From the NCBI GenBank assembly GCA_039804105.1, contig JBDRZU010000001.1, positions 384,001-448,000 of the forward strand: a DNA stretch of 64,000 nt, read 5' to 3'. The stretch is from a candidate division WOR-3 bacterium (GTDB lineage Bacteria > Hydrothermota > 32-111). The translations under genes were made by a program, and so were the position numbers. Under the pieces are notes generated by a model. That model was not told the origin of the DNA, made no database searches, and saw only the letters and a program-made list of their open reading frames with translations. Positions 5,788-36,470 of the stretch are shown here, piece after piece (position 1 is the first letter of the stretch; each line of letters begins with the position of its first letter).

Positions 5788-6247
5788 TCTTGTCTCCTTT
5801 GTTCAGAAGTGAATTTAACTCATCAATGAATTCATTCATATCTTTGAATTGTCTGTAAACGGAAGCAAATCTAACATAAGATATTTCATCTATCTCTTTC
5901 AAGTGCTCCATAACTATCTCTCCAATGATTTTTGATTCCACCTCCTCAGATTCTTTTGCAAAAAGTTTTCTTTCAACATCTTCAACAATTTTGTTGATAC
6001 TTTCATTTGAAACCGGTCTTTTCCTGCATGCCGTTCTGATACCCTCTATCAGTTTATCCCTTGCATACGGTTCTCTTCTACCATCTCTTTTGATAACGAG
6101 TAATGGAGTTTTTTCAACATACTCATAGGTTGTGAACCTTTTTTTACATTGGAGACATTCCCTTCTTCTTCTAACACTCTGTCCATCTTTACTCGCTCTT
6201 GAATCTATAACTCTGTTCTCTTCAAAACCACAGTATGGGCATTTCAT
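5729..6247 (-). CDS. nrdR: Transcriptional repressor NrdR
   Basis: MKCPYCG...VIDSR...RRRRECxxCxxRFTTYE, ATP cone, YVRFASVYRQF. Confidence 0.97.
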   Translation of the reverse strand: MKCPYCGFEENRVIDSRASKDGQSVRRRRECLQCKKRFTTYEYVEKTPLLVIKRDGRREPYARDKLIEGIRTACRKRPVSNESINKIVEDVERKLFAKESEEVESKIIGEIVMEHLKEIDEISYVRFASVYRQFKDMNEFIDELNSLLNKGDKNGNKRDKHKRIKDDIKGKS

Positions 6248-6729
6248 ATTTTTTTAATTTTCTTTGTTGCATTCAACACCAAAGTGTTTGTACAGCTAAC
6301 AATATTTCCATTGTCATCTTTGCCATAATAAGTTTCAACCATCTTAGAAGAAGTGTAGTTTCCGGTTGTAAAAAGTGCATTATCTTCTATTATAGAACTT
6401 CCACCATCTATCCTTAATGTTCCAAACCAACTCTTAACTTCATTTTCATAATAATAATATGTTTTAACAATATTACCGTTAACTATAAGTTGTCCATAAC
6501 AACAACATCCTTCTGGTCCATAATTACCAAGTGTTACACCAATATTGTTCTTTTCTTTTATGGTAACATCAGCATAGAAAGACCAACCATTTGTTGCACC
6601 GTATGTTCCATCTGTTACCGGATTTGGAGAATAACTCAACTCAAGTTCAGCACTCTGAGGTAGAGGAAGTAACATACACGATGTAAAAAATAAAACGATT
6701 AAAATTGGGAAATAAAAGAATCTTTTCAT
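6244..6729 (-). CDS. Hypothetical lipoprotein (start moved to ATG 6729)
   Basis: MKRFFYFPILIVLFFTSC lipobox-like signal. GGAG RBS just upstream. The longer ORF start lies inside the terminator hairpin. Confidence 0.7.
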   Translation of the reverse strand: MKRFFYFPILIVLFFTSCMLLPLPQSAELELSYSPNPVTDGTYGATNGWSFYADVTIKEKNNIGVTLGNYGPEGCCCYGQLIVNGNIVKTYYYYENEVKSWFGTLRIDGGSSIIEDNALFTTGNYTSSKMVETYYGKDDNGNIVSCTNTLVLNATKKIKKI

Positions 6730-6742
6730 AAAACTCCTTTTC

Positions 6743-6768
6743 AAAAAAGGGGAAATCAATTCCCCTTT
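6743..6768 (-). terminator. Rho-independent terminator after the aldehyde dehydrogenase gene
   Basis: Minus strand reads AAAGGGGAA-TTGAT-TTCCCCTTT-TTT, directly at the aldh stop codon. Confidence 0.75.
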
Positions 6769-8275: not shown

Positions 8276-9190
8276 CTATTTTAAGATTTTTTCAAGTTCT
8301 TTATCCTCTGGATATCTCTCTTCAAAAAGTGTAACAACTTCGGATCGATATCCTATTATCCTTCCAAAATCATCAACTTTCAAAATCAACTTATCAAAAC
8401 TTGATAATTCACCATATCCTTTCATTATTATAGTATGATTTTTAGGTGTTTCGATAGCATTCCTTAATCCAATCCCATCGAATCCACCAAAAATAATATC
8501 TATACCTTCCACATTTTCCGCAATAATTTTGTCATGTTCAAGACCAACAGATGTTAAACCAATTATAATTGAACATCTATTTTTTTTCAATATATCGACC
8601 ATCTCTTTCGCTACATCGATCTCCCTGCTTATGACATAATTCCCAGCAACATCTTCATCCATATTCAATAATGCATATTCAGATAATAAGCCAAATACAC
8701 CGATCCTGACTCCTTCCTTTTCAATAATCACATAACGTTCAGGTTGTAAATCTGAATTCAGAATCTTTAAGTTTGAAGAGATAAGTTTTGGATTAAAAAG
8801 TTTTACAGAGTTTAAGAAGAACTCAGGACCTGCGATTATCTCATCAATGCCGAGATTCACGATATCATAACCCATATGGTTAAAATACAAAGCAGGTTTG
8901 ATAAAATCAACAGAATCGTTATCAACACTTTTAAAGACAAAATTGCCAGAATCAAAGAGAAGAAATATTGCACCATTTTTACAAGCTTTTTCTCTTTCAT
9001 ATTTTATAGCTGTTGATAGTGAATATATACCACCAAGAACTGGAGGAAAATCAGGGTTGATAAAAGTTGCCTCCCTTCTATCAAGAACATTTCTTATATC
9101 GTTTGTATGTATTAATATGATATCTTTTGAAAAAATTGATAAAAAGAACAGAAAACCAAATAAAATGGAAAAACTCTTTTTCATTTTCAC
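8276..9190 (-). CDS. Exported 5'-nucleotidase/UshA-like metallophosphoesterase N-terminal domain with degenerate metal ligands
   Basis: Signal peptide. The fold motifs are recognisable but altered: HTNDIRN, FDSGN, NLGIDE, IGVFGL, LTSVG, IFGGFDG. No C-terminal substrate domain. Confidence 0.75.
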   Translation of the reverse strand: MKMKKSFSILFGFLFFLSIFSKDIILIHTNDIRNVLDRREATFINPDFPPVLGGIYSLSTAIKYEREKACKNGAIFLLFDSGNFVFKSVDNDSVDFIKPALYFNHMGYDIVNLGIDEIIAGPEFFLNSVKLFNPKLISSNLKILNSDLQPERYVIIEKEGVRIGVFGLLSEYALLNMDEDVAGNYVISREIDVAKEMVDILKKNRCSIIIGLTSVGLEHDKIIAENVEGIDIIFGGFDGIGLRNAIETPKNHTIIMKGYGELSSFDKLILKVDDFGRIIGYRSEVVTLFEERYPEDKELEKILK

Positions 9191-9193
9191 CTC

Positions 9194-9760
9194 TTAAAAA
9201 ACTGTTATTTTATCAGCTGCTTTTTCAAGTATTTTCGAAAAATAATTTTCATATATATGAGCCAGAGTATCCGATTTGATGAGTATAGATGCTTCATTGT
9301 TTTTATCAAGTGCCTGGTAACTCCAGTTTGTTGAACCAACTATAACAAAAACTGAATCTATGATCAGCGCTTTTGCATGCAGTGTCGCTTCAGGATCATC
9401 ATAGTAAACTTTTATACCCCCACTTCTTAAAAAATCGCCAAGATCTTTGTTTCTAATGCTTTGATTCGGATTGAAACCTGACTGATCAAGAATGATCTTT
9501 ACATCAACACCCCTTTTAACAGCATCAAACAAAGATTCATAAATCTTTTGGTTCACACCTTCCTTTCTTTCAGGATAATAACCACCTTCAAGCATCATGA
9601 TATGAATCGTTTTTTTCGAATTTTTTATAAGTTTTAATAAATTTTTTGAATATTCTCTGTTGTTCATTGTCATTGCTCCCTCCGCAGGGAGAAAATTTAA
9701 ACTATCTGAAAACAAAAAGTAAAAAGAAAATATCGATAAGAAAAATATTAACCTTTTCAT
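9194..9760 (-). CDS. Exported single-HKD phospholipase D superfamily protein (Nuc-like nuclease)
   Basis: Signal peptide, KRGVDVKIILD, LHAKALIID...VGSTNWS...NNE. Confidence 0.88.
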   Translation of the reverse strand: MKRLIFFLSIFSFYFLFSDSLNFLPAEGAMTMNNREYSKNLLKLIKNSKKTIHIMMLEGGYYPERKEGVNQKIYESLFDAVKRGVDVKIILDQSGFNPNQSIRNKDLGDFLRSGGIKVYYDDPEATLHAKALIIDSVFVIVGSTNWSYQALDKNNEASILIKSDTLAHIYENYFSKILEKAADKITVF

Positions 9761-9770
9761 AAATGTACTC

Positions 9771-10346
9771 CTAAGGTGTTATTGTTAAACTGTCAAATTT
9801 GAACTTATAAAGTTTTTCAAAAAAATCTTCATATTTTAAAGATATATCCCTTGATTTCACAGCAACAGCACATTCATTGTTTTTTGCAAGAGCATAAAAA
9901 CTCCAGTTTGTAGATCCAACGACAGTTATGGTTGAATCTATAACAACGAATTTTGCATGTGTTGTTATGTCGGGCATATCAAAGTATACTTCAACTCCAA
10001 ACTGTTTCATATATTTTACATACTCGTCGTTTTTAACTGATAATGAAGGATTCCATGAGGATTGATCAACGATCACAACAACCTTGACACCTCTTTTAAC
10101 TGCATTTATCAGAGAATTTTGGATATCTGTTGGTTCACCTTCAGGATAATCTGGATAATAACCAACCTGATATATAACAGCATGGATAGTTTTCTTCGAA
10201 TTGTCAAAAAGTTTTATAAGAGTTTTTGTATAGTCTCTGTCGTTCATCGGCAACACTCCATCAACAGGAAAAAGTTTTAACTCTTCCTGTGAAAAGATTG
10301 CTGAATAAATCATAAAAGGTAATAAAATTAAAATTATCTTTTTCAT
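9771..10346 (-). CDS. Exported single-HKD phospholipase D superfamily protein (Nuc-like nuclease), paralog; start moved to ATG 10346
   Basis: MKKIILILL signal after an AGGAG RBS, KRGVKVVVIVD, THAKFVVID...VGSTNWS...NNE. Confidence 0.88.
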   Translation of the reverse strand: MKKIILILLPFMIYSAIFSQEELKLFPVDGVLPMNDRDYTKTLIKLFDNSKKTIHAVIYQVGYYPDYPEGEPTDIQNSLINAVKRGVKVVVIVDQSSWNPSLSVKNDEYVKYMKQFGVEVYFDMPDITTHAKFVVIDSTITVVGSTNWSFYALAKNNECAVAVKSRDISLKYEDFFEKLYKFKFDSLTITP

Positions 10347-10353
10347 AATTCTC

Positions 10354-11514
10354 CTAAAATTTGATTGAAACATCACCAACGAATTTTAAAACTCTATCGT
10401 TATAATAAATTCCTTCTTTTTCATAGTTGATATTTTTATAGTTAACAGCAAGAGTAAATTCTGTCATCCCTAATTTGTATGTAAGTCCTGTTGAAAAACC
10501 TATATCTACCAATCTGTTATCCTTTCTGTATGGTTCATACAGAAAACCATACATAAGATCAATATTTCTATTAAGTTCATGTGAAACACCAATATTATAT
10601 TTGATAAGATCGTTGTAATCTTTAAAATCACCGTTGAGTTCACTCCATCTTTCATAACTCAAAGAATAATAGAAAGTAGCTGGTGCAACATTCTTTGCTC
10701 TATATTCCAAACCAAAAGAGAATATGTTGGGGATTATATAGTAGACGGTCTCAGTCAAAAGATTTGTATCAGAAGCGATGATATCAGTTACTCTGTTAAC
10801 TGTAAGATATGTTCTAATGTTGTAAACAAAAGTTAAAATTACATCATCTTTATGGTTGTAGGAAATTCCGATATTTCCTCTGATCCCTGAGTAATTTTCT
10901 TTCGTGGATGATGTAGAGTCAATAAAAGAAGGATCTACAAAAAGTTTTGAGTAATCGGATGAACCATCTCCCTGCATTATTGAAAAATTTGTTCCCAAAG
11001 CTAATCCATAAAATCTGTAATTCAAACTCAAAAAGTATGTGTTTACATTTCCAATTCTGACATAACTTTCATCATAGAGTATAACATAGTTATCGTTTCT
11101 GTATATTTGTCGATAGGTATAATCATTGTTTATGTAATTCTCATAACCTAAATAGAGACCAAAATCTGATACGGGCATATATCCCATAATGTAAGCAGGT
11201 TCACCATAAAGAAAAGTGTTATCGTAAACATTCTTTTTCGCAACACTGTTTTCGTATGAATCAAAAATATACTTTGATCTTGTTTCCCTTGTTGATAATC
11301 CATAAAAACCGAGCGAAATCAAATAGTTTGTGGTTTTACATTCAACTGTTGGATTCAAAAGTGGATTGAAGAAGAAATCGTTGTTCCCCAGTGCTGCTCC
11401 TTTACTGAAAAGCGATGTGTTAAAATCTCCAAGTCCTGTATTGTATAATGAAACATATGAAAAAAGGTTAACACAAAAGAAACTCAGAAGAATAATATAA
11501 AAAAACTTTTTCAT
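10354..11514 (-). CDS. Outer-membrane beta-barrel, FadL/OmpP1/PorV-like (start moved to ATG 11514)
   Basis: Signal peptide, GAALG...NP N-terminal plug-like motif, alternating aromatic beta strands, C-terminal DVSIKF. Confidence 0.7.
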   Translation of the reverse strand: MKKFFYIILLSFFCVNLFSYVSLYNTGLGDFNTSLFSKGAALGNNDFFFNPLLNPTVECKTTNYLISLGFYGLSTRETRSKYIFDSYENSVAKKNVYDNTFLYGEPAYIMGYMPVSDFGLYLGYENYINNDYTYRQIYRNDNYVILYDESYVRIGNVNTYFLSLNYRFYGLALGTNFSIMQGDGSSDYSKLFVDPSFIDSTSSTKENYSGIRGNIGISYNHKDDVILTFVYNIRTYLTVNRVTDIIASDTNLLTETVYYIIPNIFSFGLEYRAKNVAPATFYYSLSYERWSELNGDFKDYNDLIKYNIGVSHELNRNIDLMYGFLYEPYRKDNRLVDIGFSTGLTYKLGMTEFTLAVNYKNINYEKEGIYYNDRVLKFVGDVSIKF

Positions 11515-11522
11515 TTTTCCTC

Positions 11523-13943
11523 CTACCATCTGATATCTATCTGACAGGATATACTTAAAAGATTTCTATACTCATTAAAATCTGAGATTACCTGAAAATC
11601 AGAATCAATATAACGATACTTGTTGTTGTAAAGTGATATACCAGAAAATGTTGTCTCTTGGTTCTTCAACGATAATTTCATTCTCATTGAAAGAATGTTT
11701 GATATTCTATCAACAAAAGTTAAATACATTTTGTTTCCCTTCCCATAGAGAAAATCTATTCCATTATCTTCAAGTATCCATTGACTCATACCATCCGTAT
11801 TCCATGTAGCAAAACCACCAAGTAATGAAAGAAAATCTGTAAACTTTTTCTCATAGGAAATATTCACAAAAGAACCATCGATAAAATTGTTCTCAAGGTT
11901 ACCACCTGTTGTGAGTTTTACCATTCCATACCTTGCCTCAAAATTCAGATAATCACTGTTATCAAGAACTGTGAATACTCTTAAAGTTGTTTCGTTAGTT
12001 ATAGAATTTGTTGACACTATACTTTTATAAATGTTTTTCTCCTGAATTTTATGTTTCAACCTGATTCTCACTGGATAAACAGGCCTTAACTCAAGTTCAG
12101 TTTGAAATCTGTAGTTGAGTAAGTTATAGTCGAGTGTTCTCCATATATCAAGATATGTGTAGTTCAATGTCAGATTCGAAAGGATTCTATATCTTGTCTC
12201 CAGGTATATTCCTTCCTCAGGTTTAGGCCTTGGATCATCGAGTATAAATGTGAAAAGCGGATCTATCAATCTGTAGGTTTTTTCAAATTCTGTATCATCA
12301 TATCTTGATTGTTCATAAAATGGCCTTGAGTAGAAATTTGTATAACCAAGATCGTATCTTCTTAAAAGTCCTACAAAATAAAAATCATTGTAAACAACAC
12401 CGCTTTTCAAAACATAAGCATAACTGTTTTTCTGTTTTGCAATTTCATACTGTAAGAAAACATTTTTATATGCTGTCTGGAAATTCAACCCGTAAACACT
12501 CATTCGATCACCTTTAAATTCTGATATATACACAGGAATATTAAGATTATCTTTATCGTATGGTATATCAAGAGTTAAACTGTCCTGTTCGAAACTTCTA
12601 TCGAAGATCGAGTTGAAACCGGAAACACCAATCTGTGTTACAAGTGGGAGATTAAAAATTCCCCCAATATTGATAGCGAATTTCCCTCCAAAAGTTTTCT
12701 CCCTGTAAACATCTGTGAATTCATCGATGTAAGTTTTCGTTAAAAATGGAAGGTTTACGGTTGAATCTCTGTTTAAAACACCATCTCTGTTCTTATCTGA
12801 AACAAACAAAAGATAATACAATCTACTGAAATTACCTTCAAGAGCAACTCCCAAAAGATTGTTTGCAAAAGATTCGTTAACATCGACAAAAAGTCCAGAA
12901 CTCCTGTCATATGTTCTTGAACTTTTTTCATCGGTGTTATCAAAAATCACTCCTTCATTCAAAGTAACTCGATAATTTCCAAATATGAGATTTTTTATAA
13001 ATGGGATATCCCTTATCTGAAAATAACCTTTAAAACCTCTTCGTCCAAGTGTTGAATAATCTGTAAAGAGTGTTCCGAAAGAGAAGTTGTTCCCAAGATT
13101 AAATGTCAATTTGTTGTAAAGGTTTGCACCGATTTTTCTTTTCGAAACCTGTAAATATTCTCTTTCAATTCGACTTTTTAAAGAATCAACTTCTTCAGAA
13201 GTATAACCAGCTTTTAAAAGAGTATTTCTAAGGTTAGAGGAATCGGGATTTATAACCTCAAGTTGTTTTAATCTATAAGATAGTTCGTTTGCAAGTGAGG
13301 AAAAAGAGGAATAACCATAAGTGTCATCGTTTGAATATCTAACCTTTGTTCTGATATATCCAGAAAGATCAAAAAAATTTCTTTTGTGATCCTTGAAAGA
13401 GATATAATTTCTTAAATTCGAATAAGCATAATAGGTAAGGTTTGGTGTTCGTCTGAGATCACTTGGATACCTGTAAGTTCTTGTCTTTTTTGCCTGCATT
13501 ATAGCTTCAACATCAGTTAATCTCACACCGTAAATCTGTGAAATCTCTTCAAATCCCACTTTATTTATGTTGATCTTCTCAACGAGCAACCTTTCCCATA
13601 GATCTATCGCGCCCTTTGAAGGATTCTCTTCACTCGCCAACCTATCCTGCATCCTTAAAATATAGATCGAAGTTGAATCAAGAGTTGTATCAGGTTTTAT
13701 TTCAAACTTATCCTTTAATATTGAAAATATTTCATAATCGACACCATCTATTTCAATAAGTTCATAGATCGATTTTATCTCACCATGTTTTTTTAAATAC
13801 AATTTTATATTGTTTATAACCTCATCTGGTAAAAACAATGTATCGAGTACATCAGGATCAACATTGTTTATATCAATTTTCTCCTGTGAAAAAAGTATTG
13901 AAAAAATGGTGAGAGCCAAAAGAAAAATGTATATCCTTCTCAT
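11523..13943 (-). CDS. ComEA-type helix-hairpin-helix domains (x2) fused to a predicted outer-membrane beta-barrel
   Basis: Signal peptide. HhH_3-like units KIDINNVD...HGEIKSIYELIEIDGV and KININKV...IYGV...SDLRR. Long amphipathic beta-rich C-terminal part ending QIDIRW. Confidence 0.75.
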   Translation of the reverse strand: MRRIYIFLLALTIFSILFSQEKIDINNVDPDVLDTLFLPDEVINNIKLYLKKHGEIKSIYELIEIDGVDYEIFSILKDKFEIKPDTTLDSTSIYILRMQDRLASEENPSKGAIDLWERLLVEKININKVGFEEISQIYGVRLTDVEAIMQAKKTRTYRYPSDLRRTPNLTYYAYSNLRNYISFKDHKRNFFDLSGYIRTKVRYSNDDTYGYSSFSSLANELSYRLKQLEVINPDSSNLRNTLLKAGYTSEEVDSLKSRIEREYLQVSKRKIGANLYNKLTFNLGNNFSFGTLFTDYSTLGRRGFKGYFQIRDIPFIKNLIFGNYRVTLNEGVIFDNTDEKSSRTYDRSSGLFVDVNESFANNLLGVALEGNFSRLYYLLFVSDKNRDGVLNRDSTVNLPFLTKTYIDEFTDVYREKTFGGKFAINIGGIFNLPLVTQIGVSGFNSIFDRSFEQDSLTLDIPYDKDNLNIPVYISEFKGDRMSVYGLNFQTAYKNVFLQYEIAKQKNSYAYVLKSGVVYNDFYFVGLLRRYDLGYTNFYSRPFYEQSRYDDTEFEKTYRLIDPLFTFILDDPRPKPEEGIYLETRYRILSNLTLNYTYLDIWRTLDYNLLNYRFQTELELRPVYPVRIRLKHKIQEKNIYKSIVSTNSITNETTLRVFTVLDNSDYLNFEARYGMVKLTTGGNLENNFIDGSFVNISYEKKFTDFLSLLGGFATWNTDGMSQWILEDNGIDFLYGKGNKMYLTFVDRISNILSMRMKLSLKNQETTFSGISLYNNKYRYIDSDFQVISDFNEYRNLLSISCQIDIRW

Positions 13944-13952
13944 AAAAATCTC

Positions 13953-14831
13953 CTAAAACGAATAGGACAGTTGGATATGGTTTCTTGAAGGAAGATTTAT
14001 CACGGTTGTGTATCCATAATCAATCGATATGTTTTTAATCTTTAATTCAAATCCTAGGCCAAGAGTTGCAGGATAATTTCTTACACCTGAAAATATTGTA
14101 AAAACATTTTTCACGATTTGGGACTTGAATGAAAAACCAAATGAAGTTGGTTCACCACTTGTTTTTGAAAGATCGAAATTGGTAGTTAAACTCTCATAAG
14201 GGCTGAATGTTAAACCACCGGAAACCTTTCTTGTTATATAGTATCTTTCGTTACTCATTGAGCCAACTATATATGTATCTGTTAGATTAGAAACAGATAA
14301 ACCAATAAACCATCTATCGTAAATCCTTCCTATTATACCAAGATCAGCAGTATAATATATGTTGTTGTTATCATCAATTCCTTCCATCTTTTGTTCAACA
14401 AAAAGAAAATTAATATTTGTCCCTACCATAATAACATCGTTAAACCCCATACCATAAGTTAACTGGACAACTCGTTCTGTTTGTAATCTTGTGTTTGTAG
14501 AAATGATAGAATCCATATTTGAATAATCTCCCAAAACAAAAAGTTCAGAATATTTTAAACCGAGATTACCATAGTTCGAATAGTATCCACCAGAAATTGA
14601 TACTGTGTGTATGAACCTGTAAAGGTTCTCATACGACACAGAAACCTGATACTTATCAAGACCAACGATTGAAGCAGGATTAACTGTTATATTTTCTATT
14701 CCTGTAAGCATTCCTGTTGTAGCGAAAGCCATACTTTTTGATTGAACATTTCCGGGTATATATTCAAACACAGCAAAACTATTCAGGAAAAGTAAAAATG
14801 AAATTATGAAAATTAAAACTTTCTTTTTCAT
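13953..14831 (-). CDS. PorV/PorQ-like outer-membrane beta-barrel
   Basis: Signal peptide, SMA..A.T....NPA plug motif, GLGF...IDYGY...HIQLSYSF C-terminus. Confidence 0.75.
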   Translation of the reverse strand: MKKKVLIFIISFLLFLNSFAVFEYIPGNVQSKSMAFATTGMLTGIENITVNPASIVGLDKYQVSVSYENLYRFIHTVSISGGYYSNYGNLGLKYSELFVLGDYSNMDSIISTNTRLQTERVVQLTYGMGFNDVIMVGTNINFLFVEQKMEGIDDNNNIYYTADLGIIGRIYDRWFIGLSVSNLTDTYIVGSMSNERYYITRKVSGGLTFSPYESLTTNFDLSKTSGEPTSFGFSFKSQIVKNVFTIFSGVRNYPATLGLGFELKIKNISIDYGYTTVINLPSRNHIQLSYSF

Positions 14832-14843
14832 CTTTTACCTCAA

Positions 14844-16817
14844 CTATTTTAATTTTGTTGAAATAACAATTGGTTTTGTGATACTTGTAACATAACCATT
14901 TGGATCGATTTTGGATACATTGAGTATAAATATTCCTATGTTACACCTTGCTCCATTCTTGTCTTTACCATCCCATTGATATATATTTGAACCTGGCTGG
15001 TTTTCAGCGATAGTTTTTATATGTTTTCCATTTATATCATAGATTTTCAATGTGAATCGTTCAGTGTTCAAACCTTTTAATTCGATTCTCAAGACCTGTC
15101 CATAATCTGGTGAGAAAGGGTTTGGAAAGAGTGAAACAGAAAAGGTGGAATCTTCAGGTAAACTTAAAATGTTGATATCCGATCTTTTGCGAACAAGAAG
15201 TTGATAACCAGAAGTGTATGGAGATTGGTTGTCATATTGGCTTGCTATTCCTGTAACATCGAGGATATTACCCGGCATTATCGAACTCATAATATTATCA
15301 AGATAAAGACCTGTTGATTGCCCGATTCTCACATCAATAACAGAAAAGCCATTTTGCACCTGGAAATTCTTTCCTGTTCCAGCATCAACAGGATATGTTA
15401 GAATCTTTCCATATCTGATCTTCAAAAGTTTACCTTCAACATTCTCAGAAATCCCCTGAGAGTTCAAAAGTTCTTCAGGTTTAACGATCGCTATCGTATC
15501 ATTTATAATGTAAACATCAGTATCTGGAGAAGAATATTTGATTTCAGTTAATCCATTATATTCAGTCACTGTTCCTCTGACTATGACCTCTATACCTTCT
15601 TTAAATTTTTGATTAGCTGGATCTGAAGATGAATATATGTTGACACCACCAGTTTGATCCTGTATATAAAAACCAGTTGATGTTGCAGTTGGCGAGAAGA
15701 TACTTGATGATCCAGTTACGATTCCTTTTACTGAAACAACCTGTCCCACATATTTTGAATTGTATCCATCATTTGTCGATTGAACCTCAGAAATATTCAT
15801 AATATCAGCAAAAGGGATTTTTTTCATAACAAAAAAAGAAGAAACTGGCAGTAATTGTGTTTGAGTAACTCCCGTGTACATCTTTACAGTATCAACATTT
15901 GTAAAATAATAATCTTTGATATAAATCTTTATAGTATCCTTAAAAGAAATATCGTCGATGTTAATCGTTGTTGTATTTGAAGTCGTATCGAAAGTTATTT
16001 TTGTTGAATCAAAAGAAATTAAAGATGAATCACAAACAACTTTTATTGAATCTGTAAGAACCTTTTTGTTTAAAACAACTTTAAGATATTTTATCGTTCC
16101 ATAAACAGTATCAACATTAGGGATAAGATCCACTCTTATATCGTTATAAGAAAAATCGTTAAAAAATTTCGGATTAACACTTAAAACTCCACTTCCATCA
16201 AGTGTTTTTAAAACATCTTCGTTTCCATAAGGTCTCAATTCAAATTTACCGTTGTATTCATCCATACATCCTCTAACAAAAATGAAAGTATCGTTTAGAG
16301 ATTCAACTGTTACAGGATAGTTAAGATCCTCGTATACAGTTAAAGGCCCTGTGCCATCATCGATTTGCCATTCTCTCGCTGTTACTATCTGACTCACATA
16401 ACAGCCCTCTAACTGTACAAACATCCCCTCCCATTTTTCTTTTCCTGCCTCACCTGTTTTGAGTTTCACCGGGCCTGGGATCGTCCGTCCTTTTGCAAGT
16501 ACAGTTAGAACTGTTGGATTAGAAATCTCTGTTTTTCCATTGTATTCAACAACCTGTCCTGTAACACTTATTGAATCTCCAACTTCAACAGGAGCTGGAG
16601 GATTATACACAAGAATTCCATGCCACGGTAAAGTATCATCCTGTATATACACATTAACTCCAAAAACTCTTGTAACTATTCCTGAAACCGTAACAATTTG
16701 TCCAGCATAGGGAGAAGCACCAGAAATGTTTTCAGTATATTGAACATCATAGATCGTTAACGAAAAAGAGACGATAACAAGTAAAACGGTTGAAAAAAAT
16801 AAAAATAGATATTTCAT
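14844..16817 (-). CDS. Secreted protein with repeated YhcR/ExeM-type OB-fold modules and a C-terminal T9SS/FlgD-Ig sorting domain
   Basis: Two TIxxVQ...SxYxGQxVxVxGIVT...YIQD...GxxxY...VxGxVxEYNGxTEI...EG modules, each followed by a second OB-like unit. C-terminal FPNPFSP...LKIYDING...WDGKD..G. Confidence 0.8.
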   Translation of the reverse strand: MKYLFLFFSTVLLVIVSFSLTIYDVQYTENISGASPYAGQIVTVSGIVTRVFGVNVYIQDDTLPWHGILVYNPPAPVEVGDSISVTGQVVEYNGKTEISNPTVLTVLAKGRTIPGPVKLKTGEAGKEKWEGMFVQLEGCYVSQIVTAREWQIDDGTGPLTVYEDLNYPVTVESLNDTFIFVRGCMDEYNGKFELRPYGNEDVLKTLDGSGVLSVNPKFFNDFSYNDIRVDLIPNVDTVYGTIKYLKVVLNKKVLTDSIKVVCDSSLISFDSTKITFDTTSNTTTINIDDISFKDTIKIYIKDYYFTNVDTVKMYTGVTQTQLLPVSSFFVMKKIPFADIMNISEVQSTNDGYNSKYVGQVVSVKGIVTGSSSIFSPTATSTGFYIQDQTGGVNIYSSSDPANQKFKEGIEVIVRGTVTEYNGLTEIKYSSPDTDVYIINDTIAIVKPEELLNSQGISENVEGKLLKIRYGKILTYPVDAGTGKNFQVQNGFSVIDVRIGQSTGLYLDNIMSSIMPGNILDVTGIASQYDNQSPYTSGYQLLVRKRSDINILSLPEDSTFSVSLFPNPFSPDYGQVLRIELKGLNTERFTLKIYDINGKHIKTIAENQPGSNIYQWDGKDKNGARCNIGIFILNVSKIDPNGYVTSITKPIVISTKLK

Positions 16818-16818
16818 C

Positions 16819-18222
16819 TTACCTCCTGAGAATCCCTTTCCTTTTAGATGAAGGGAGAATATTTAATTTTTCTCTATATTTCGCGACAGTTCTTCGTGCG
16901 ATTTTTATCGAATGTTTTTCCTCAAGAATTTTTACAAGTTCTATATCAGAATAAGGATTGTTTGGATCCTCATTCTCTATCTCTTCTTTTATGATATTCA
17001 TAATTTTTTTGTTTGAAACCTCAAAACCTGTTGTGTTTTTAACACCCTTAGAAAAGAAAAATTTTAAAGGAAATATACCAGCAGGTGTTTCCATATATTT
17101 ATTTTCTATTGCTCTTGAAACTGTTGCTTCATGAATTCCTATATAACTTGAGATATCGTTCAAAGTAAGCGGTTTTAAAGAGGAAATTCCGTTGAAGAAA
17201 AAATCTTTTTGAATCTGAACGATCCTTTCTGATATTTTTAAAAGAGTATTATTTCTTCTGTATATACCTTCAAGTAAAAACAACGCTGCATTGAACTTGT
17301 TTTTCAAAAATTTTTTTTCTTCCTGTGAAAGATTTTCGTTATTTTTGTACATTTCAAAATAACTTTTACTCAGATGAACTTCAGGGAAAGATTGTAGATT
17401 TAAAGAGACATATAGTTCTTCACCTCTCTGTTCCACTATAATATCCGGAATAATGTAATCTGAACTTTTTCCCCAACTTCCATTCGCCGGTTTGGGATTC
17501 AAAGTTCTGATCGATTCAAGAACTTTTTCAAGTTTGTTTCTTGTGATTTTTAATTTGTTTTCAATAATATATAATTTGTTTGTTAAAAACTCTTCATAAA
17601 AATCTTTTATAATCCTATATTCCAATGAATCCATTTTGTTTTGATTTTCAAGTTGAGTTAGAAGAACTTCCTGAACACTTCTACTACCGATACCTACTGG
17701 ATCAAAAAATTTATATTTTGAATGGACATATTCAACTTTTTCAATTGGAATGTTTAAATTTTCTGCGATCTGGGACAAAGATACTTCCAAAAGCCCATCA
17801 TCCGAAAGTGAAAAGGTTATCTCTTCAGCAATTTTTATTTCATCTGGATCATCAAAAAAAATATGTGATTGTGTCAAAAGGTAATCCTGCAAACTTTCAG
17901 GTTCTTCAACATTTGTTAATGGATCAAACTCTTCTCTTTCTCTATCATATCTTTCAGAAGGTAAAGATGCTCTTTTCCAATCATCATGAAAAAAATATTC
18001 ATAGTCAATTTCATCCTTCAAAGGTAGTTCAGGTTCAACCTCCTCATATGTAACATCTTCTTCTTCAAGAACATCATCGGCCAAAAATGGATTCTGTTCA
18101 ATCTCGTTCGTTATAACCTGTTGCAACTCGAGAAGAGGAAGTTGTAAAATTTTTACAAGAGTCAACAACTGTGGTGTTAATTTTATTTCCTGTCTTAAAG
18201 AGGTCTCAAGTTTCTGTTTCAT
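16819..18222 (-). CDS. rpoN: RNA polymerase sigma-54 factor
   Basis: Q-rich LTPQL...ILQL region I, LKPLTL, HEATVSRA, IARRTVAKYRE (RpoN box). Confidence 0.97.
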   Translation of the reverse strand: MKQKLETSLRQEIKLTPQLLTLVKILQLPLLELQQVITNEIEQNPFLADDVLEEEDVTYEEVEPELPLKDEIDYEYFFHDDWKRASLPSERYDREREEFDPLTNVEEPESLQDYLLTQSHIFFDDPDEIKIAEEITFSLSDDGLLEVSLSQIAENLNIPIEKVEYVHSKYKFFDPVGIGSRSVQEVLLTQLENQNKMDSLEYRIIKDFYEEFLTNKLYIIENKLKITRNKLEKVLESIRTLNPKPANGSWGKSSDYIIPDIIVEQRGEELYVSLNLQSFPEVHLSKSYFEMYKNNENLSQEEKKFLKNKFNAALFLLEGIYRRNNTLLKISERIVQIQKDFFFNGISSLKPLTLNDISSYIGIHEATVSRAIENKYMETPAGIFPLKFFFSKGVKNTTGFEVSNKKIMNIIKEEIENEDPNNPYSDIELVKILEEKHSIKIARRTVAKYREKLNILPSSKRKGILRR

Positions 18223-18938
18223 AATCTGAATTTTTCTCCAAGATAGAGTTCTCTTGCCTTCTCATCGTTAATTAACTGGTGAGTATCCCCGGATAAGAGA
18301 ATCTTTCCTTCATATATTATATGTGCTACATCTACGATTTCAAGTGTTTCTCTTACATTATGATCGGTTATTAAAATTCCGATACCTTCTTTTGCAAGAT
18401 CAGTTACCATATTTTGTATTTCTTCTTTAACCTTTGGATCTATCCCTGTAAAAGGTTCATCAAGAAGTAAGAATTTTGGATTTGAAGTCAAAGCCCTTGC
18501 GATTTCGACCCTCCTTCTTTCTCCACCCGAAAGTTTGTAAGCAGGGAGATTTTTCAAATGTGATACTTTAAATTTTTCAAGGAGTTCATCAGCCCTTTTC
18601 TCATTTTTTTTTCTATCTGGAAACAACATTTCAAGTATAGCCAAAAGATTTTCTTTTACAGTTAGTTGCCTAAAAATTGAACTCTCCTGTGGAAGATATC
18701 CTATTCCCAGCCTTGCTCTTTTATACATTGGAAGATCTGTTATATCCTTTTCATCAAGAAAAATTTTCCCTGATGATACAGGAACAACTCCAACCATCAT
18801 ATAAAAAGTTGTTGTTTTACCAGCTCCATTTGGACCGAGAAGTCCAATAATTTTACCATTTTCAACTTCAAGAGACAGTTGATCCACAACTTTCCTTTTT
18901 CCGTAGTATTTAACAAGATTTTCACATCTGAGTATCAT
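18219..18938 (-). CDS. lptB: LPS export ABC transporter ATPase
   Basis: GLLGPNGAGKTTTFYM, RARLGIGYLPQE, LSGGERRRVEIARAL, ITDHNVRETL. Lies immediately upstream of rpoN. Confidence 0.95.
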   Translation of the reverse strand: MILRCENLVKYYGKRKVVDQLSLEVENGKIIGLLGPNGAGKTTTFYMMVGVVPVSSGKIFLDEKDITDLPMYKRARLGIGYLPQESSIFRQLTVKENLLAILEMLFPDRKKNEKRADELLEKFKVSHLKNLPAYKLSGGERRRVEIARALTSNPKFLLLDEPFTGIDPKVKEEIQNMVTDLAKEGIGILITDHNVRETLEIVDVAHIIYEGKILLSGDTHQLINDEKARELYLGEKFRL

Positions 18939-19833
18939 TTTGTTCCTTTTTCAGAAGTTCACTTTCTTTGATCCTGAAAAAATTAAGGATATCAACTTTT
19001 GAAGATTTAAAAGATCCATCGACTGAATCGCATTTTATTCTTATTATATTATCACTTTCATTTTCAAATACAATATTGTTTTTTCCAACCATTCTCTGTA
19101 AACTATCATTTTTAAAATAAAAAACAAAAGTATCACCTTGAAAGAACGATCTGTTTGAGTATATCTCTCCCCTTTTTATCGTTTTAAAAAAAGAATTTTT
19201 TCTATCATAGATAACAGAGTCAGATTTGATCTTAAAACTATCATTGAATATCTCAACATCGTAAGAAAAAATGTTCATAGAATCTTTATCATCAATAAGA
19301 AGATTTTGAGATTTTATAGTATAGGAAGAATCATTTTTTTGAAGTATAGAATTCCCTTTTATAAAAGTTTTTTCAGTGTTTTTGAAATATTCAATATGGT
19401 TACCCAAAATTTTAAAATTTTCCTGAACATTTTCAAATAAAGGTGTTCCTGTAAAAACTAATAGTGAATCGTCAAGAAAAATTTTGAGTGTTTCACTTTC
19501 GATTAAAAATCTTTTTTCTTTTTCTGTTTTTTGAAAATTTATCAGAAATTTTTTTTCTTTTATAAAATAAATACCCGATTTTGCAAATATTTTAATAGAA
19601 TCATCTCTTTTTAGAAGAAAACTTTTAGGGAAGTATATCAAGGAATCTTTTTTCAAAATGTAAGATGAATCGGTGATAAGGTTATATTCATTAGATTTGA
19701 AATCAACATTTTTGAAAAAAAAGATTGTATCACCATTTATTGATGCTTTTTCAGAATAAAGAGTATAAGAGTATAAATATTCAATGAAAGATAAAAACAG
19801 GATTAATAAAAAAATTTTAATTTTTTTCATCAT
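18922..19833 (-). CDS. LptA/OstA-like beta-jellyroll protein
   Basis: Signal peptide, repeated xxDS beta units, position between the lptC-like gene and lptB. Confidence 0.65.
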   Translation of the reverse strand: MMKKIKIFLLILFLSFIEYLYSYTLYSEKASINGDTIFFFKNVDFKSNEYNLITDSSYILKKDSLIYFPKSFLLKRDDSIKIFAKSGIYFIKEKKFLINFQKTEKEKRFLIESETLKIFLDDSLLVFTGTPLFENVQENFKILGNHIEYFKNTEKTFIKGNSILQKNDSSYTIKSQNLLIDDKDSMNIFSYDVEIFNDSFKIKSDSVIYDRKNSFFKTIKRGEIYSNRSFFQGDTFVFYFKNDSLQRMVGKNNIVFENESDNIIRIKCDSVDGSFKSSKVDILNFFRIKESELLKKEQNDTQM

Positions 19834-20302
19834 AAATTAATACTGGTGAAAGAAAAATCGTTTTTTTGAAATTATCAAAACACACGAATCCTTTTGTTAA
19901 CATTTTATCACTCTTTTTCTCTATCATGATTGAGTCCTCGGTTCTTAAAGTATCAGATTCAATATTGTAATAAAGAAATCTTGTATACAACACCATAGAA
20001 TCCGAAAATAAAACTTTAACATTTCCAAAATATTCGATCGACTTTTCATAAACATAAGAACTATCAGCAAAAATTTTTACATTTTCTCCATCCTCTCTTA
20101 TATACTCAATATTCTTCAGAACATACATTTTTAAAGAATCAATATAATAACCGGTATCAGATTTTAATGAATAAATTTTCACACTATCTTCATAATAATC
20201 GGATTTGTAATCTATAACAATATCTTTTTGAACGATTGGAACTTTTTCAATATCTTCTCTGCTACAGAAAATAAGAAAAAGAAAAAAACTAACAGTTATC
20301 AT
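19817..20302 (-). CDS. lptC: LptC-like LPS export protein (start probably ATG 20302)
   Basis: N-terminal hydrophobic anchor ending FC, beta-jellyroll motifs (FGNVKV, LYTRFLYY, TEDSIMI), position in the lpt cluster. Confidence 0.6.
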   Translation of the reverse strand: MITVSFFLFLIFCSREDIEKVPIVQKDIVIDYKSDYYEDSVKIYSLKSDTGYYIDSLKMYVLKNIEYIREDGENVKIFADSSYVYEKSIEYFGNVKVLFSDSMVLYTRFLYYNIESDTLRTEDSIMIEKKSDKMLTKGFVCFDNFKKTIFLSPVLIYDEKN

Positions 20303-21107
20303 CCTGAAAAATTTTACTGAAGAAATCATATTGAAATATGTCCTTTCGAATCTGGTTTTCAAAAAACTGGTATATTTTTTCAAGTGTAAACCCAGATGCA
20401 TCATAAAAATAAATTCTATGTTTTCCTTTTTCAAACCTTGTGATCATCAAAACAGGAGTTAGTTTAAACTTTCCGATGATGTTGAACCATCCGGATGGCA
20501 ATTCCTGTTCAATACCAAGAAAATTTATTTTTTTCGTTGTGAGATTGTTCAACCTCTGATCGATCATAAATGACAAAATCCTTCCTTCCTCTATGTGTTT
20601 TCTATAAACCTCAGTTGGAGAACTTTTTTCTATAAGCTTTATCCCATATTTTACTCTGATAGAGTCAATATAACTATAAAACCATTCGTCTCTTTTTTGA
20701 TAAACAATGGAGATATTGTATCCTTTTCTCTGCAACACTTGTCCCGCTACTTCCCAATTGCCATAATGCACAGAGATTAAGGATATCTTTTGATTTTTTC
20801 GTTTTAAATTTTCAAGTATTTCTAAATTTTCTATCTCGAATCTTCTTTCATCTGGATCATGAAACATAAGATATAAATTTTCAACAAGAAAAGCTGCACT
20901 GTTGAAGTATATCTTTATTGAAAATTTTATACGATACTTCTTCAAATTCTCTTTTACTCTCTTTTTACTTTTTATTCCAAAATTGTAAAACAATACAGAA
21001 ACCAATTTTGATATGATTATCAATATCTTTAAAGGCAAATATTTTAAAAGAAAAAGTGAAACTTTTACTAGTGGATCATTTTTTGAACTTTTCATACAGA
21101 TTCTCAA
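20289..21107 (-). CDS. LpxL/HtrB-family lysophospholipid (lipid A) acyltransferase
   Basis: HYGNWE motif, MIDQ, FLG; lies beside the lpt genes. Confidence 0.8.
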   Translation of the reverse strand: MRICMKSSKNDPLVKVSLFLLKYLPLKILIIISKLVSVLFYNFGIKSKKRVKENLKKYRIKFSIKIYFNSAAFLVENLYLMFHDPDERRFEIENLEILENLKRKNQKISLISVHYGNWEVAGQVLQRKGYNISIVYQKRDEWFYSYIDSIRVKYGIKLIEKSSPTEVYRKHIEEGRILSFMIDQRLNNLTTKKINFLGIEQELPSGWFNIIGKFKLTPVLMITRFEKGKHRIYFYDASGFTLEKIYQFFENQIRKDIFQYDFFSKIFQDDNC

Positions 21108-36412: not shown

Positions 36413-36470
36413 CTTCACTCCTAATATTTTATATTAGGATAATAATTGAATAATAATGTGATGTCAATAG

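Follow-up and report, generated by a model that had tools for sequence, protein, structure and literature searches.

Organization of the locus

A 64-kb stretch of DNA (the window) contains seven consecutive genes whose products all appear to be exported, which raises the question of whether these genes form one system and what that system does. Our answer, given with moderate confidence, is that the cassette is a conserved outer-membrane machine that scavenges extracellular nucleic acid as a nutrient. The host is an uncultured hot-spring-type bacterium of the WOR-3/TA06 lineage, and its genome is 85% complete. The features are as follows.

g1, 14844-16817, minus strand: exported 657-aa surface protein
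g2, 13953-14831, minus strand: 292 aa, exported PorV/PorQ-family barrel of the outer membrane
g3, 11523-13943, minus strand: 806 aa, two ComEA-like HhH modules and a large outer-membrane β-barrel
g3 HhH module 1, 13707-13886, minus strand: residues 20-79, the best HHH_3 stretch (own-genome match, 22.8 bits)
g3 HhH module 2, 13401-13580, minus strand: residues 122-181, second HHH_3 match (21.6 bits), with model helices at 131-177
g4, 10354-11529, minus strand: exported 391-aa barrel with a FadL fold; the ORF overlaps the end of g3
g5, 9771-10379, minus strand: 202 aa, exported single-HKD PLD-family protein of the Nuc/NucT type
g6, 9194-9760, minus strand: 188 aa, second exported single-HKD PLD-family protein, paralogue of g5
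g7, 8276-9190, minus strand: 304 aa, exported; degenerate metallophosphoesterase (N-terminal) domain of the UshA/CD73 type of 5'-nucleotidase

The seven minus-strand ORFs span 8276-16817 and, from their coordinates, are spaced by 3-12 nt or overlap slightly, in agreement with the preliminary description of packed, co-oriented genes with signal-peptide-like N-termini. At all seven N-termini, basic residues preceded a hydrophobic segment; a crude hydropathy scan was passed by six of the seven ORFs (g6 was borderline at 2.26) against a background of 23 of the 58 ORFs in the window. The domains earlier assigned to the seven proteins were likewise recovered by profile matches and, for g4, by the fold of its model. 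The packing is real, but it is the norm in the window, where nearly all long ORFs are tightly packed on the minus strand, with rpoN 1 nt upstream of g1 and an aldehyde dehydrogenase gene 12 nt downstream of g7. Neither packing nor co-orientation alone therefore delimits the unit, whereas synteny across genomes does.

Conservation of the cassette

At the 17 loci compared within the WOR-3/TA06 phylum, g2 and g3 were always adjacent, g4 followed g3 at 14, g1 and g7 were each present at 12, and a PLD gene was present at 10. The flanks lptB-rpoN and aldh-nrdR were kept only within family f1 and differed in f2, f4, f5, f6 and f8. A distant clade (MAGs labeled Cloacimonadota and others) encodes proteins with about 25-29% identity to g3, flanked by varied housekeeping genes. 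Among its 49 loci in which the sequence extended 3.3 kb or more past the end of g3, g4 lay downstream of g3 in all 49 and a gene for a 552-574-aa 5'-nucleotidase in 47; after dereplication of g3, the pattern was found in 28 of 29 clusters at 90% identity and in 13 of 13 at 70%. The preliminary description had made its proposal depend on co-location elsewhere, and the cassette genes were indeed co-located in other genomes with different flanks.

Synteny in both clades identifies g3, g4 and the 5'-nucleotidase as the conserved core, to which g1, g2 and the PLD pair are add-ons. PLDs are restricted to part of the WOR-3/TA06 phylum, and a single WOR-3/TA06 lineage has elaborated this core into the set of seven genes. 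Central to the system is g3, for which a search revealed 123 representatives at E≤1e-30. It was present in 29 of 40 phylum genomes; its absence from the other 11, ten of which are at least 94% complete, marks the system as accessory rather than housekeeping.

Surface protein g1 and barrel g2

In g1, a middle domain accompanies two OB-fold modules, located at residues about 21-215 and about 340-548, and residues 563-657 (DNA 14847-15131) make up a C-terminal domain of the T9SS type, which matched FlgD_ig (28.4 bits) and Por_Secre_tail (16.4 bits). The OB fold matched PF01336 (32 bits). The OB region also resembled ExeM/NucH, matching the N-terminal part of the ExeM_NucH_DNase model at 67.8 bits (cut-off 300), and distant g1 relatives carry a lamin-tail domain; in contrast to ExeM/NucH, g1 lacks an endonuclease/exonuclease/phosphatase domain. 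A DUF5689 match covered model positions 4-217 of 217 at 23.9 bits, below the cut-off of 28.6. Among 16 g1 orthologues, OB was found in 13, FlgD_ig in 12, DUF5689 in seven (best E 1.9e-13) and LTD in two. The available parts of two reports place DUF5689 in DdbD (PMC12478041) and in Riemerella RA0C_RS04920 (PMC8459023), both proposed DNA binders that adjoin an outer-membrane barrel, and its presence in g1 relatives supports the suspected link to nucleic acid.

The g2 protein matched PorV_fam at 35.8 bits, below the cut-off of 90; among its 22 orthologues, PorV_fam was matched by 20 (best E 1.2e-23), PorVQ2 by 13 and PorQ by 11. Additionally, the g2 and g4 profiles were homologous (hhalign 98.5%, E 3.7e-15).

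The HhH-barrel fusion g3 and its predicted complex with g4

HHH_3 matched g3 over two stretches at 35 bits, above the cut-off of 27. HhH hairpins usually contain a Gly-hydrophobic-Gly turn; by eye, this turn is absent from those of the g3 copy in the window, and when residues 1-190 were searched against PDB sequences, the best hit reached only E 0.11. Both points count against scavenging. The barrel comprises residues about 190-806. From the strands predicted in the AF2 model (pLDDT 81.6, pTM 0.77), it would be large, with roughly 24-26 strands. Structural comparison revealed only generic large barrels, with MtrB (Z 15.2, 402 residues) on a par with porins, ushers and SprA, so that the modeled barrel fits no known barrel family, which counts against g3 as a candidate DNA pore. 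A domain profile scan of g3 found no POTRA or other assembly domain and no plug or TonB-receptor domain. The same kind of scan across g1-g7 found no TonB-dependent receptor or pilus gene, as expected from the earlier view of a pilus- and TonB-independent system.

No family could be assigned to g4 by sequence. Its model (pLDDT 83.2) had a FadL fold, and the best structural matches were BamG chains (Z 34.7, 34.5 and 34.4; 346-349 residues aligned), ahead of FadL (Z 32.5), TodX (30.9) and PorV (25.6). To our knowledge, the characterized barrels of the FadL, PorV and BamG types function in lipid uptake, protein secretion or barrel assembly rather than in nucleic-acid transport.

The predicted g3-g4 complex scored 0.62 (runs 0.66, 0.62 and 0.58), compared with 0.05 for the best control; the partners had a pLDDT of at least 81, and the runs shared at least 68% of contacts. 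Of 157 solved complexes, 116 reached the mark applied to this score, compared with 2 of 215 mismatched pairs; the pass may partly echo the solved PorV-SprA and BamG-BamA pairs. In the model, the top of g4 strands 1-2 contacts the top of the first and last g3 strands (the seam), and this interface, together with the usual periplasmic C-terminus, would place the N-terminal HhH region in the periplasm. According to the available part of PMC12578637, PorV-SprA (T9SS translocon) and BamG-BamA (Bacteroidota BAM) similarly hold a 14-strand FadL-fold barrel side by side with a larger one. In contrast to these pairs, the cassette has a large barrel other than SprA or BamA and encodes two partners of the FadL type (g2 and g4), and the predicted contact lies at the g3 seam, whereas BamG is described at the back of BamA.

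These likenesses raise the alternative that the complex mainly serves something other than nucleic acid, for example as a T9SS-linked platform for g1 anchoring or export or as an outer-membrane assembly accessory, with the HhH, OB and PLD folds reused for ligands such as polyphosphate, teichoic-like polymers or phospholipid. The PorV/PorQ-like g2, the BamG matches of the g4 model and the weak matches of 10 of 24 g4 relatives to the BamG model are consistent with this, as are the PorU-like C25 peptidases adjoining the cassette at two loci (L098 and L104), the position of the family f1 cassette after lpt genes and rpoN, and the action of the PLD family on lipids as well. However, the matches to the BamG model reached no more than 84.9 bits, far under the equivalog cut-off of 250, the lpt/rpoN neighborhood is limited to one family, g3 lacks an assembly domain, and many near-complete phylum genomes do without the system. 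The conserved 5'-nucleotidase and the co-occurrence of HhH, OB/DUF5689 and Nuc-type PLD would also be left unexplained, and we consider this alternative unlikely.

The PLD pair g5 and g6

Nucleic-acid scavenging, our preferred reading, assigns cleavage to g5 and g6. The g5 protein, which likely starts at the ATG at 10346, matched PLDc_2 (81 bits), the PLDc active-site motif (25 bits) and the NucT models (53 bits), and its translation contains HxK(x)4D and GSxN motifs; g6 matched PLDc_2 at 92.7 bits. The HxK...D motifs are intact in both proteins, and ClsB and cardiolipin-synthase models gave weak matches. The two proteins are about 45% identical, and orthologue searches cross-match at about the same level. 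The five best solved relatives of g6 were the Nuc endonuclease (1byr, E 1.1e-8), mitochondrial cardiolipin hydrolase (9lkx and 4ggj, E 2.6e-8 and 5e-8), a phospholipase (7e0m, E 1.7e-7) and NucT (6ehi, E 1.2e-5). Like Nuc and Helicobacter pylori NucT, g5 and g6 belong to a class of exported proteins of about 155-200 aa with one HKD motif; they differ in being two diverged side-by-side paralogues and in falling short of the NucT equivalog cut-off (53 against 211 bits). This arrangement suggests a heterodimer. Both proteins carry an ordinary signal peptide and no C-terminal sorting domain, which points to a periplasmic location, so that a polymer would have to enter the cell envelope.

In the distant clade, our own PLD profile detected no PLD at 80 loci, and no nuclease families were found among 48 proteins scanned from 9 loci; the substrates of the core may thus be nucleotides or short oligomers and not long DNA. 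Accordingly, g3 and g4 could be a porin for mono- or oligonucleotides only, with unrelated enzymes cutting DNA outside, the HhH modules concentrating the products and the 5'-nucleotidase finishing the breakdown. The core without a nuclease in most lineages fits this account, as does the setting of locus L067, with a thymidine kinase gene and a purine-nucleoside-phosphorylase-family gene upstream and a GMP-reductase-type gene downstream. On the other hand, a barrel of the predicted size would far exceed the need of a nucleotide pore, tandem (HhH)2 modules, like surface proteins with several OB folds, bind polymers, and the host-lineage nucleases appear to be periplasmic. We regard a nucleotide porin as quite improbable.

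The 5'-nucleotidase companion g7

The g7 protein aligned with CD73 residues 6-242 (E 6e-11) and matched UshA/SoxB-type models weakly. It corresponds to the N-terminal metallophosphoesterase domain of UshA/CD73 but differs in that, of seven metal or catalytic residues, five are replaced and in that the C-terminal nucleotide-binding/substrate domain is missing. These losses mark g7 as a pseudoenzyme, and the nucleotide binding earlier attributed to g7 has no basis. Orthologues in other lineages are complete enzymes; those at L032 and L033 have 507-530 aa with all catalytic motifs intact, and the distant-clade counterparts contain Metallophos and 5_nucleotid_C. The intact two-domain 5'-nucleotidase at the g7 position in most lineages strengthens the nucleic-acid link. 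A search of the host genome, at its 85% completeness, found no 5_nucleotid_C domain elsewhere; with g7 dead, the last breakdown step would be missing in the host, which argues against scavenging.

Comparison with known systems

The preliminary description knew of no account of such a combination; this does not hold, as Bacteroidota loci for DNA utilization or uptake with a DUF5689 protein, a barrel, nucleases and an HhH protein have been published (PMC12478041; PMC8459023). From what is available of these reports, the closest known systems are the ddbABCDEF locus for DNA utilization in Bacteroidales and a transformation module related to it in Riemerella anatipestifer, which comprises RA0C_RS04915/04920 and the HhH protein RA0C_RS02645. 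As described there, they share with the cassette a surface protein whose putative DNA-binding domain is of the DUF5689/OB type, a β-barrel in the outer membrane, exported nucleases and, for Riemerella, a periplasmic HhH protein; both groups are pilus-free and belong to the same broad bacterial group. In contrast, those systems use as their barrel a SusC-like, TonB-dependent transporter that pairs with a lipoprotein and to which g3 is unrelated, and their surface protein carries a lipid anchor instead of a T9SS-type domain. The cassette also differs in its fusion of HhH to the barrel, its two FadL-superfamily partner barrels, its PLD-family nucleases and its constant 5'-nucleotidase companion.

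The g3 modules further resemble ComEA, the periplasmic DNA receptor of competent bacteria, in being of the HHH_3 type, apparently periplasmic and placed to hold incoming DNA. They differ in that two are fused to an outer-membrane barrel, whereas ComEA is free or anchored in the inner membrane, and in their divergent hairpin motifs. The host genome separately encodes a stand-alone 117-aa ComEA, a secretin and ComEC (139.9 bits); a conventional DNA route thus exists, which also counts against scavenging.

DNA uptake for natural transformation is accordingly an alternative, in which g1 would catch double-stranded DNA, g3 and g4 would import it intact into the periplasm, and the HhH modules would act as ComEA and pass it on to ComEC, with the PLDs trimming or processing it, as proposed for NucT in Helicobacter. 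The ComEC gene and the ComEA-type modules of g3 speak for transformation, but the near-constant partner (47 of 49 loci) is a catabolic enzyme, the 5'-nucleotidase, for which we know of no role in transformation. Two exported nucleases would destroy incoming DNA, a secretin and a ComEA are already present in the host, and the annotated loci have no ComEC, DprA or ComF gene close to the cassette. In favor of transformation, the Riemerella module of DUF5689 protein, barrel and periplasmic HhH protein is reported as essential for transformation (PMC8459023), and the ddb loci are described as related to it (PMC12478041), as far as the available text of each goes. On balance, transformation seems an improbable function.

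Proposed function

In the scavenging reading that we prefer, g1 would be exported and held at the surface through its T9SS-type domain, probably by the PorV-like g2, and its OB/DUF5689 modules would bind DNA. DNA or large fragments would cross the outer membrane via g3, with g4 (and perhaps g2) as fixed partner barrels, as PorV is for SprA and BamG for BamA. The ComEA-like modules at the periplasmic end of g3 could then grip the incoming strand, forming a tethered binding ratchet that operates without TonB or a pilus, and the periplasmic PLD pair, possibly as a heterodimer, would cleave the DNA. In most lineages, an active 5'-nucleotidase would then free nucleosides and phosphate; in the host lineage, where g7 has lost catalysis and the substrate domain, it is probably retained as a structural or binding subunit. 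If this reading is correct, DNA would be captured and digested by a route without earlier description, through a barrel fused to DNA-binding modules.

Organization of the cassette and its surroundings

The region 8276-16817 was found to contain seven minus-strand open reading frames (ORFs) arranged head to tail, which confirmed the seven-gene set noticed in the preliminary description. We refer to these genes as g1 to g7: a surface protein with OB-fold and DUF5689 similarity (g1), a PorV-like barrel (g2), a fusion of HhH modules with a large barrel (g3), a FadL-fold barrel (g4), two single-HKD PLD-family proteins (g5 and g6) and a truncated 5'-nucleotidase of the UshA/CD73 type (g7). Family scans of all seven proteins bore out the domain calls made earlier. 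Each protein carries a basic-then-hydrophobic leader at its N-terminus; a crude hydropathy scan flagged this leader in six of the seven ORFs, with g6 being borderline, against a background of 23 of the 58 ORFs in the window.

The tight, co-oriented packing of the genes, to which the same description had drawn attention, is real but carries no weight, as nearly the entire 64-kb window is a single long run of tightly packed minus-strand genes. In particular, rpoN ends 1 nt upstream of g1, and an aldehyde dehydrogenase gene (aldh) starts 12 nt downstream of g7. A consensus scan revealed no clear promoter or terminator between rpoN, the cassette and the aldehyde dehydrogenase gene, and the boundary of the unit was not readable from it; promoter-like sites numbered 73 (60.6 +/- 7.5 expected) and terminator-like sites 8 (4.6 +/- 2.2 expected), and the sole minus-strand terminator-like site near the cassette, at 6765-6750, lies past the aldehyde dehydrogenase gene. 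Since packing is uninformative in this window, the unit must be defined by cross-genome comparison. The following features of the window are referred to below.

16819-21107, minus strand: a lipid A acyltransferase-like gene, two OstA/LptA/LptC-like genes, lptB and rpoN, in this order, directly upstream of the cassette
6244-6759, minus strand: a 171-aa ORF (orf171) with a lipoprotein-like leader and no Pfam family
35330-36418, minus strand: a true member of the PorV family, scoring 203.4 bits (cut-off 90)

Elsewhere in the window, the ORF at 40128-40592 (minus strand) has an N-terminus, MKKGFSLIELMIV..., which we take to resemble a type IV pilin or pseudopilin leader.

Conservation within the phylum

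The nearest named relative was a metagenome-assembled genome (MAG) labelled candidate division TA06 bacterium 32_111, the g3 of which showed 84% identity. We found g3 in 29 of 40 related genomes and, because the 11 genomes that lack it include 10 with a completeness of 94% or more, g3 is an accessory rather than a housekeeping gene. Single-sequence searches were shallow (2 loci in a genome-contig scan and 14 proteins in a word-index search). Genes were mapped in up to 20 kb around 16 g3 matches and the further locus L001, giving 17 loci.

Gene content of the 17 loci, by family of related WOR-3/TA06 loci
f1 (7/7 loci): all seven genes in order; flanks as in the window (lptB-rpoN; aldh-orf171-nrdR)
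f4 (2 loci): g1 (1130 aa)-g2-g3-g4-one PLD-g7; flanks different
f6 (1 locus): g1'-g1-g2-g3-g4-one PLD-g7; flanks different
f2 (2 loci): g1-g2-g3-g4; flanks different
f5 (2 loci): g2-g3-g4-g7; flanks different
f8 (3 loci): g2-g3; flanks different

As evident from the table, g2 and g3 were adjacent in all 17 loci, and g4 was present in 14, g1 and g7 in 12 each and a PLD gene in 10. The upstream lpt-rpoN block and the downstream aldh-orf171-nrdR genes were kept with the cassette only in family f1, in which the 171-aa ORF between the aldehyde dehydrogenase gene and nrdR was conserved in 7/7 loci.

Conservation outside the phylum

In a search of 1.84 billion proteins, a g3 profile built from 18 orthologues picked out 123 representatives (E<=1e-30), and the distant ones included proteins of MAGs labelled by their sources as Cloacimonadota, Eisenbacteria, Caldisericota, Dependentiae, KSB1 and Gemmatimonadota. 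Scanning metagenomes with the Cloacimonadota-labelled g3 branch as seed yielded 80 loci, which were searched with the profiles of g1 to g7. In 49 loci, the sequence downstream of g3 extended for 3.3 kb or more; g4 followed g3 in all of these, and a g7 homologue of 552-574 aa followed in 47. Both were found in 28 of 29 clusters when g3 was dereplicated at 90%, and in 13 of 13 at 70%. As g4 and the 5'-nucleotidase thus accompany the distant g3, the evolutionarily stable core of the cassette is g3, g4 and the 5'-nucleotidase. Upstream of the distant g3, g2 was found in 6 and g1 in 7 of the 22 90% clusters with enough upstream sequence, and our own profile search detected no PLD gene in the 80 loci. 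The flanks in this clade were varied housekeeping genes. The search for conserved synteny that the preliminary description had proposed as a check thus had a positive outcome: the cassette genes are co-located with differing flanks both inside and outside the phylum.

One distant locus, L067, carries a thymidine kinase and a PNP_UDP_1 nucleoside-phosphorylase-family gene upstream (2537-4870) and a GMP-reductase/IMPDH-type gene downstream (20347-21408). They may represent nucleoside-salvage neighbours of the cassette, or their position may be coincidental. ORFs matching these L067 genes in size, the only property on which they were judged, occupy the same positions in L063, L071-L073 and L081. 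Additionally, a conserved ORF of ~100 aa with no Pfam family lies between g2 and g3 in the distant clade (L067:9688-9990, plus strand), at the same position in L061-L073, L079, L081, L086 and L134; the window has no counterpart.

Bacteroidota were found to carry a shorter g3 branch. A 678-aa Chryseolinea protein, annotated as 'ComEA family DNA-binding protein', aligned to columns 80-603 of the g3 profile (98.4%, E 5.9e-15), and a search with this protein gave 683 matches at E<=0.001. The 120 of these matches listed were mostly ~680 aa in length; the named ones were Cytophagales, including the cultured Ohtaekwangia koreensis, and no Riemerella names occurred among these 120. An Atlas look-up pointed to this branch as well.

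Structural model of g3

The only family matched by g3 (806 aa) in Pfam and NCBIfam was HHH_3, in two stretches comprising residues 20-79 and 122-181 (35 bits, above the Pfam gathering cut-off of 27). A PDB sequence search with residues 1-190 as a single sequence gave no significant match (E 0.11). The model of g3, calculated from an 18-sequence alignment, showed a pLDDT of 81.6 and a pTM of 0.77. Its N-terminus consists of ~180 helical residues that form two (HhH)2 modules and linker helices, not a plug, and this region is followed by a first strand, a helical insert (residues 214-267) and a large barrel. The barrel is predicted to have ~24-26 strands, as 25 long strands plus short ones were counted in the model.

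MtrB was the best match of g3 in both Foldseek (E 1.8e-7, TM 0.34) and VIA-align, where the 26-strand MtrB showed a Z-score of 15.2 and an rmsd of 6.4 over 402 aligned residues. Both searches pointed to generic barrels only; MtrB, porins, SprA, ushers and TonB receptors scored alike in VIA-align (Z 13-15). Across the whole g3 family, conservation is highest at residues ~531-575 (window ~12219-12353). This long loop, in which Arg, Asp/Glu and aromatic residues are abundant and the model is of low confidence at 556-560, could act as a plug or constriction.

FadL-superfamily barrels and the predicted g3-g4 complex

The g2 protein (292 aa) matched PorV_fam (NCBIfam) with 35.8 bits, under the cut-off of 90. 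Because PorV_fam was matched by 20 of 22 g2 orthologues at E<=1e-3 (best 1.2e-23), g2 can be classed by sequence as a divergent relative of the PorV/PorQ family. It was also mutually homologous with g4 (hhalign 98.5%). For g4 itself (391 aa), a Pfam scan revealed no sequence family, Toluene_X included, and the distant g4 orthologue in L074 scored exactly the Toluene_X cut-off of 29.7 bits.

The g4 model (pLDDT 83.2) revealed a FadL fold, a 14-strand barrel with an N-terminal hatch. Superposition gave a Z-score of 32.5 and an rmsd of 3.2 over 337 aligned residues with FadL (1t16), and Z-scores of 30.9 with TodX, 25.6 with PorV and 34.7, 34.5 and 34.4 with the BamG chains of three Bacteroidota BAM complexes; the next best match had a Z-score of 20. 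Identity of g4 with BamG was considered and rejected: the window g4 had no match to the BamG model, and the 10 of 24 g4 orthologues that did (28-85 bits) were far below its equivalog cut-off of 250. A search of the organism's own genome (85% complete) for the BamG family found nothing.

Co-folding of mature g4 with the barrel part of g3 (residues 188-806), each with its own alignment, gave a score of 0.62 (runs 0.66, 0.62 and 0.58), while the best control reached 0.05. Both partners had a pLDDT of 81 or higher, and the runs had at least 68% of their contacts in common. Of the solved complexes, 116 of 157 pass the mark used for a complex, as do 2 of 215 mismatched pairs; these counts are approximate with own alignments. 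The prediction supports a putative binding of g3 to g4. BamG and PorV are both FadL homologues, the former tightly bound to BamA and the latter working with SprA (PMC12578637); the g3-g4 score may lean partly on the solved structures of these two pairs.

The predicted interface comprises, on g3, the first strand (201-205), the helical insert and the last strands (743-802) and, on g4, strands ~276-345 and 366-379 plus the top of strands 1-2 (83-100). In this model, g4 would sit on the seam of the g3 barrel. Together with the usual periplasmic C-terminus, which is assumed here, the interface would place the HhH region of g3 in the periplasm.

The surface protein g1 and its sorting

The g1 protein (657 aa) showed OB-fold matches and also matched the ExeM/NucH model in the N-terminal part of that model, which is non-catalytic. 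It also spanned the entire Pfam model of DUF5689 at 23.9 bits (cut-off 28.6), and DUF5689 was matched by 7 of 16 g1 orthologues at E<=1e-3 (best 1.9e-13). A PDB sequence search gave no significant match. The C-terminal sorting domain was recognised as FlgD_ig (28.4 bits, cut-off 27), with Por_Secre_tail scoring 16.4 (cut-off 27); FlgD_ig was present in 12 and Por_Secre_tail in 4 of the 16 orthologues. The g1-like proteins of the distant clade contained lamin-tail, Ig-like and OB domains with a C-terminal FlgD_ig domain (Pfam).

Putative markers of a type IX secretion system (T9SS) were found elsewhere in the genome, namely a weak SprA_N match (29 bits) in a 1816-aa ORF, PorU-like peptidases that reach 224.8 bits (cut-off 420) and three PorV_fam proteins that pass the family cut-off, one of them at 35330-36418. 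The SprA-like ORF, the PorU-like peptidases and the PorV-family proteins make it plausible that a T9SS-like sorting system could locate g1 at the surface. Large PorU-like C25 peptidases adjoin the cassette in the distant loci L098 (3539-8995) and L104 (15679-19305), one of them with a C-terminal FlgD_ig domain.

PLD-family proteins and the degenerate 5'-nucleotidase

The g5 and g6 proteins are exported single-HKD PLDc_2 proteins (81 and 92.7 bits, Pfam). One HxK(x)4D motif and a leader are visible in each translation, in line with Nuc/NucT-type PLDc_2 proteins of ~150-200 aa. The nearest family models were NucT, DrmC and Nuc; the NucT equivalog was not reached (best 53.3 and 47.8 bits; cut-offs 211-351). 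We also considered a role in anti-phage defence and rejected it, as PADLOC matched the PLD proteins only, in a generic manner (DrmC, MkoB/C and some further defence models with a PLD component), and detected no other defence component.

The g7 protein (304 aa) gave weak matches to UshA- and SoxB-type models. Alignment with CD73 and with intact orthologues revealed that g7 retains the N-terminal domain alone, with five of seven metal/catalytic residues replaced; the metal-binding positions are those which we take from CD73/UshA. The chain ends at residue 304, and the C-terminal 5_nucleotid_C domain is missing, so that g7 appears from its sequence to be a pseudoenzyme. The f5 orthologues in L032 and L033 (507-530 aa) keep all metal/catalytic residues and the C-terminal nucleotide-binding domain, as do the distant-clade orthologues, which are complete 5'-nucleotidases with Metallophos and 5_nucleotid_C domains (Pfam). 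The short, degenerate g7 was confined to exactly the PLD-carrying lineages f1, f4 and f6, and this pattern may go back to one event in evolution. The rest of the organism's genome (85% complete) yielded no 5_nucleotid_C domain. Given this result and the truncation of g7, the periplasmic nucleotide-binding step envisaged in the preliminary description found no support. Following the intact 5'-nucleotidase gene, f5 carries a gene (L032:4518-6170, L033:13832-15463) whose product has, by eye, a RecJ-like exonuclease N-terminus.

Comparison with known systems

The ddbABCDEF locus of B. thetaiotaomicron comprises genes for three nucleases, for the TonB-dependent transporter DdbC and for DdbD, a DUF5689 protein modelled as the DNA-binding partner of DdbC; the organism depends on the locus to deplete exogenous DNA, and the Riemerella genes to which it is related are essential for transformation (PMC12478041). 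The Riemerella module also includes an essential periplasmic HhH protein, RA0C_RS02645 (PMC8459023). We found the logic of the cassette to be the same, with DUF5689 common to 7/16 g1 relatives, but the parts differ. Whereas the Ddb channel is a TonB-dependent SusC-like transporter, the cassette has the unrelated g3 barrel with fused HhH modules; in Pfam and NCBIfam, none of the seven proteins matched TonB-receptor, plug or CarboxypepD_reg families. The cassette has FadL-fold partner barrels in addition, a T9SS-type anchor for its surface protein instead of the lipid anchor of Ddb/Riemerella, and, unlike Ddb, PLD-family predicted nucleases and a 5'-nucleotidase as its enzymes. Full-text searches revealed no published description of the HhH-barrel family or the cassette, although Datasets S1-S3 of PMC12478041 may contain ddb-like loci from beyond the Bacteroidales.

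The genome also encodes ComEC, a secretin, a stand-alone 117-aa ComEA and another HhH protein. The presence of ComEC, the secretin and ComEA indicates, at the level of gene content, a conventional competence route alongside the cassette.

Discussion

The cassette is a genuine functional unit, conserved and linked to the processing of nucleic acids or nucleotides. The earlier interpretation, a system for the capture, import and degradation of extracellular DNA, is thus partly supported, and nucleotide binding by g7 is not. The mechanism that we consider most likely, with moderate confidence, begins with the capture of DNA at the surface, from where it would pass through the g3/g4(/g2) barrel complex, be held by the tethered HhH modules and be cleaved by the PLD proteins g5 and g6; in other lineages, dephosphorylation would follow. 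We infer each of these steps. The weak points of this scheme are that most lineages have no nuclease beside the core and that the organism itself has no active 5'-nucleotidase.

To our knowledge, the only established routes of DNA across the outer membrane are pilus/secretin systems and Helicobacter ComB, and TonB-dependent transporters have recently been proposed as a further one in Bacteroidota. A further-reaching reading, which we offer tentatively and regard as rather doubtful, is that the g3 family, found under the MAG labels WOR-3/TA06, Cloacimonadota, KSB1, Gemmatimonadota and Eisenbacteria, represents an unrecognised class of outer-membrane nucleic-acid conduits. Such a conduit would have ComEA-like modules at its periplasmic mouth and FadL-fold barrels on its seam, and DNA would be pulled by binding alone, with no pilus, secretin, type IV secretion or TonB. 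If this is true, a barrel with ComEA modules built in would solve the problem by a different mechanism, possibly one that costs no energy.

The g3-type barrel is found in many uncultured lineages living on dead biomass. As extracellular DNA is a large phosphorus and nitrogen pool in sediments and hot springs, the cassette could serve as a marker of those uncultured bacteria that consume this DNA. The decay of the 5'-nucleotidase to a retained pseudoenzyme, only in PLD-carrying lineages, would be a part-swap within a conserved machine. With the Cytophagales homologues, e.g. those of Ohtaekwangia koreensis and Chryseolinea, the idea can be put to the test in culture.
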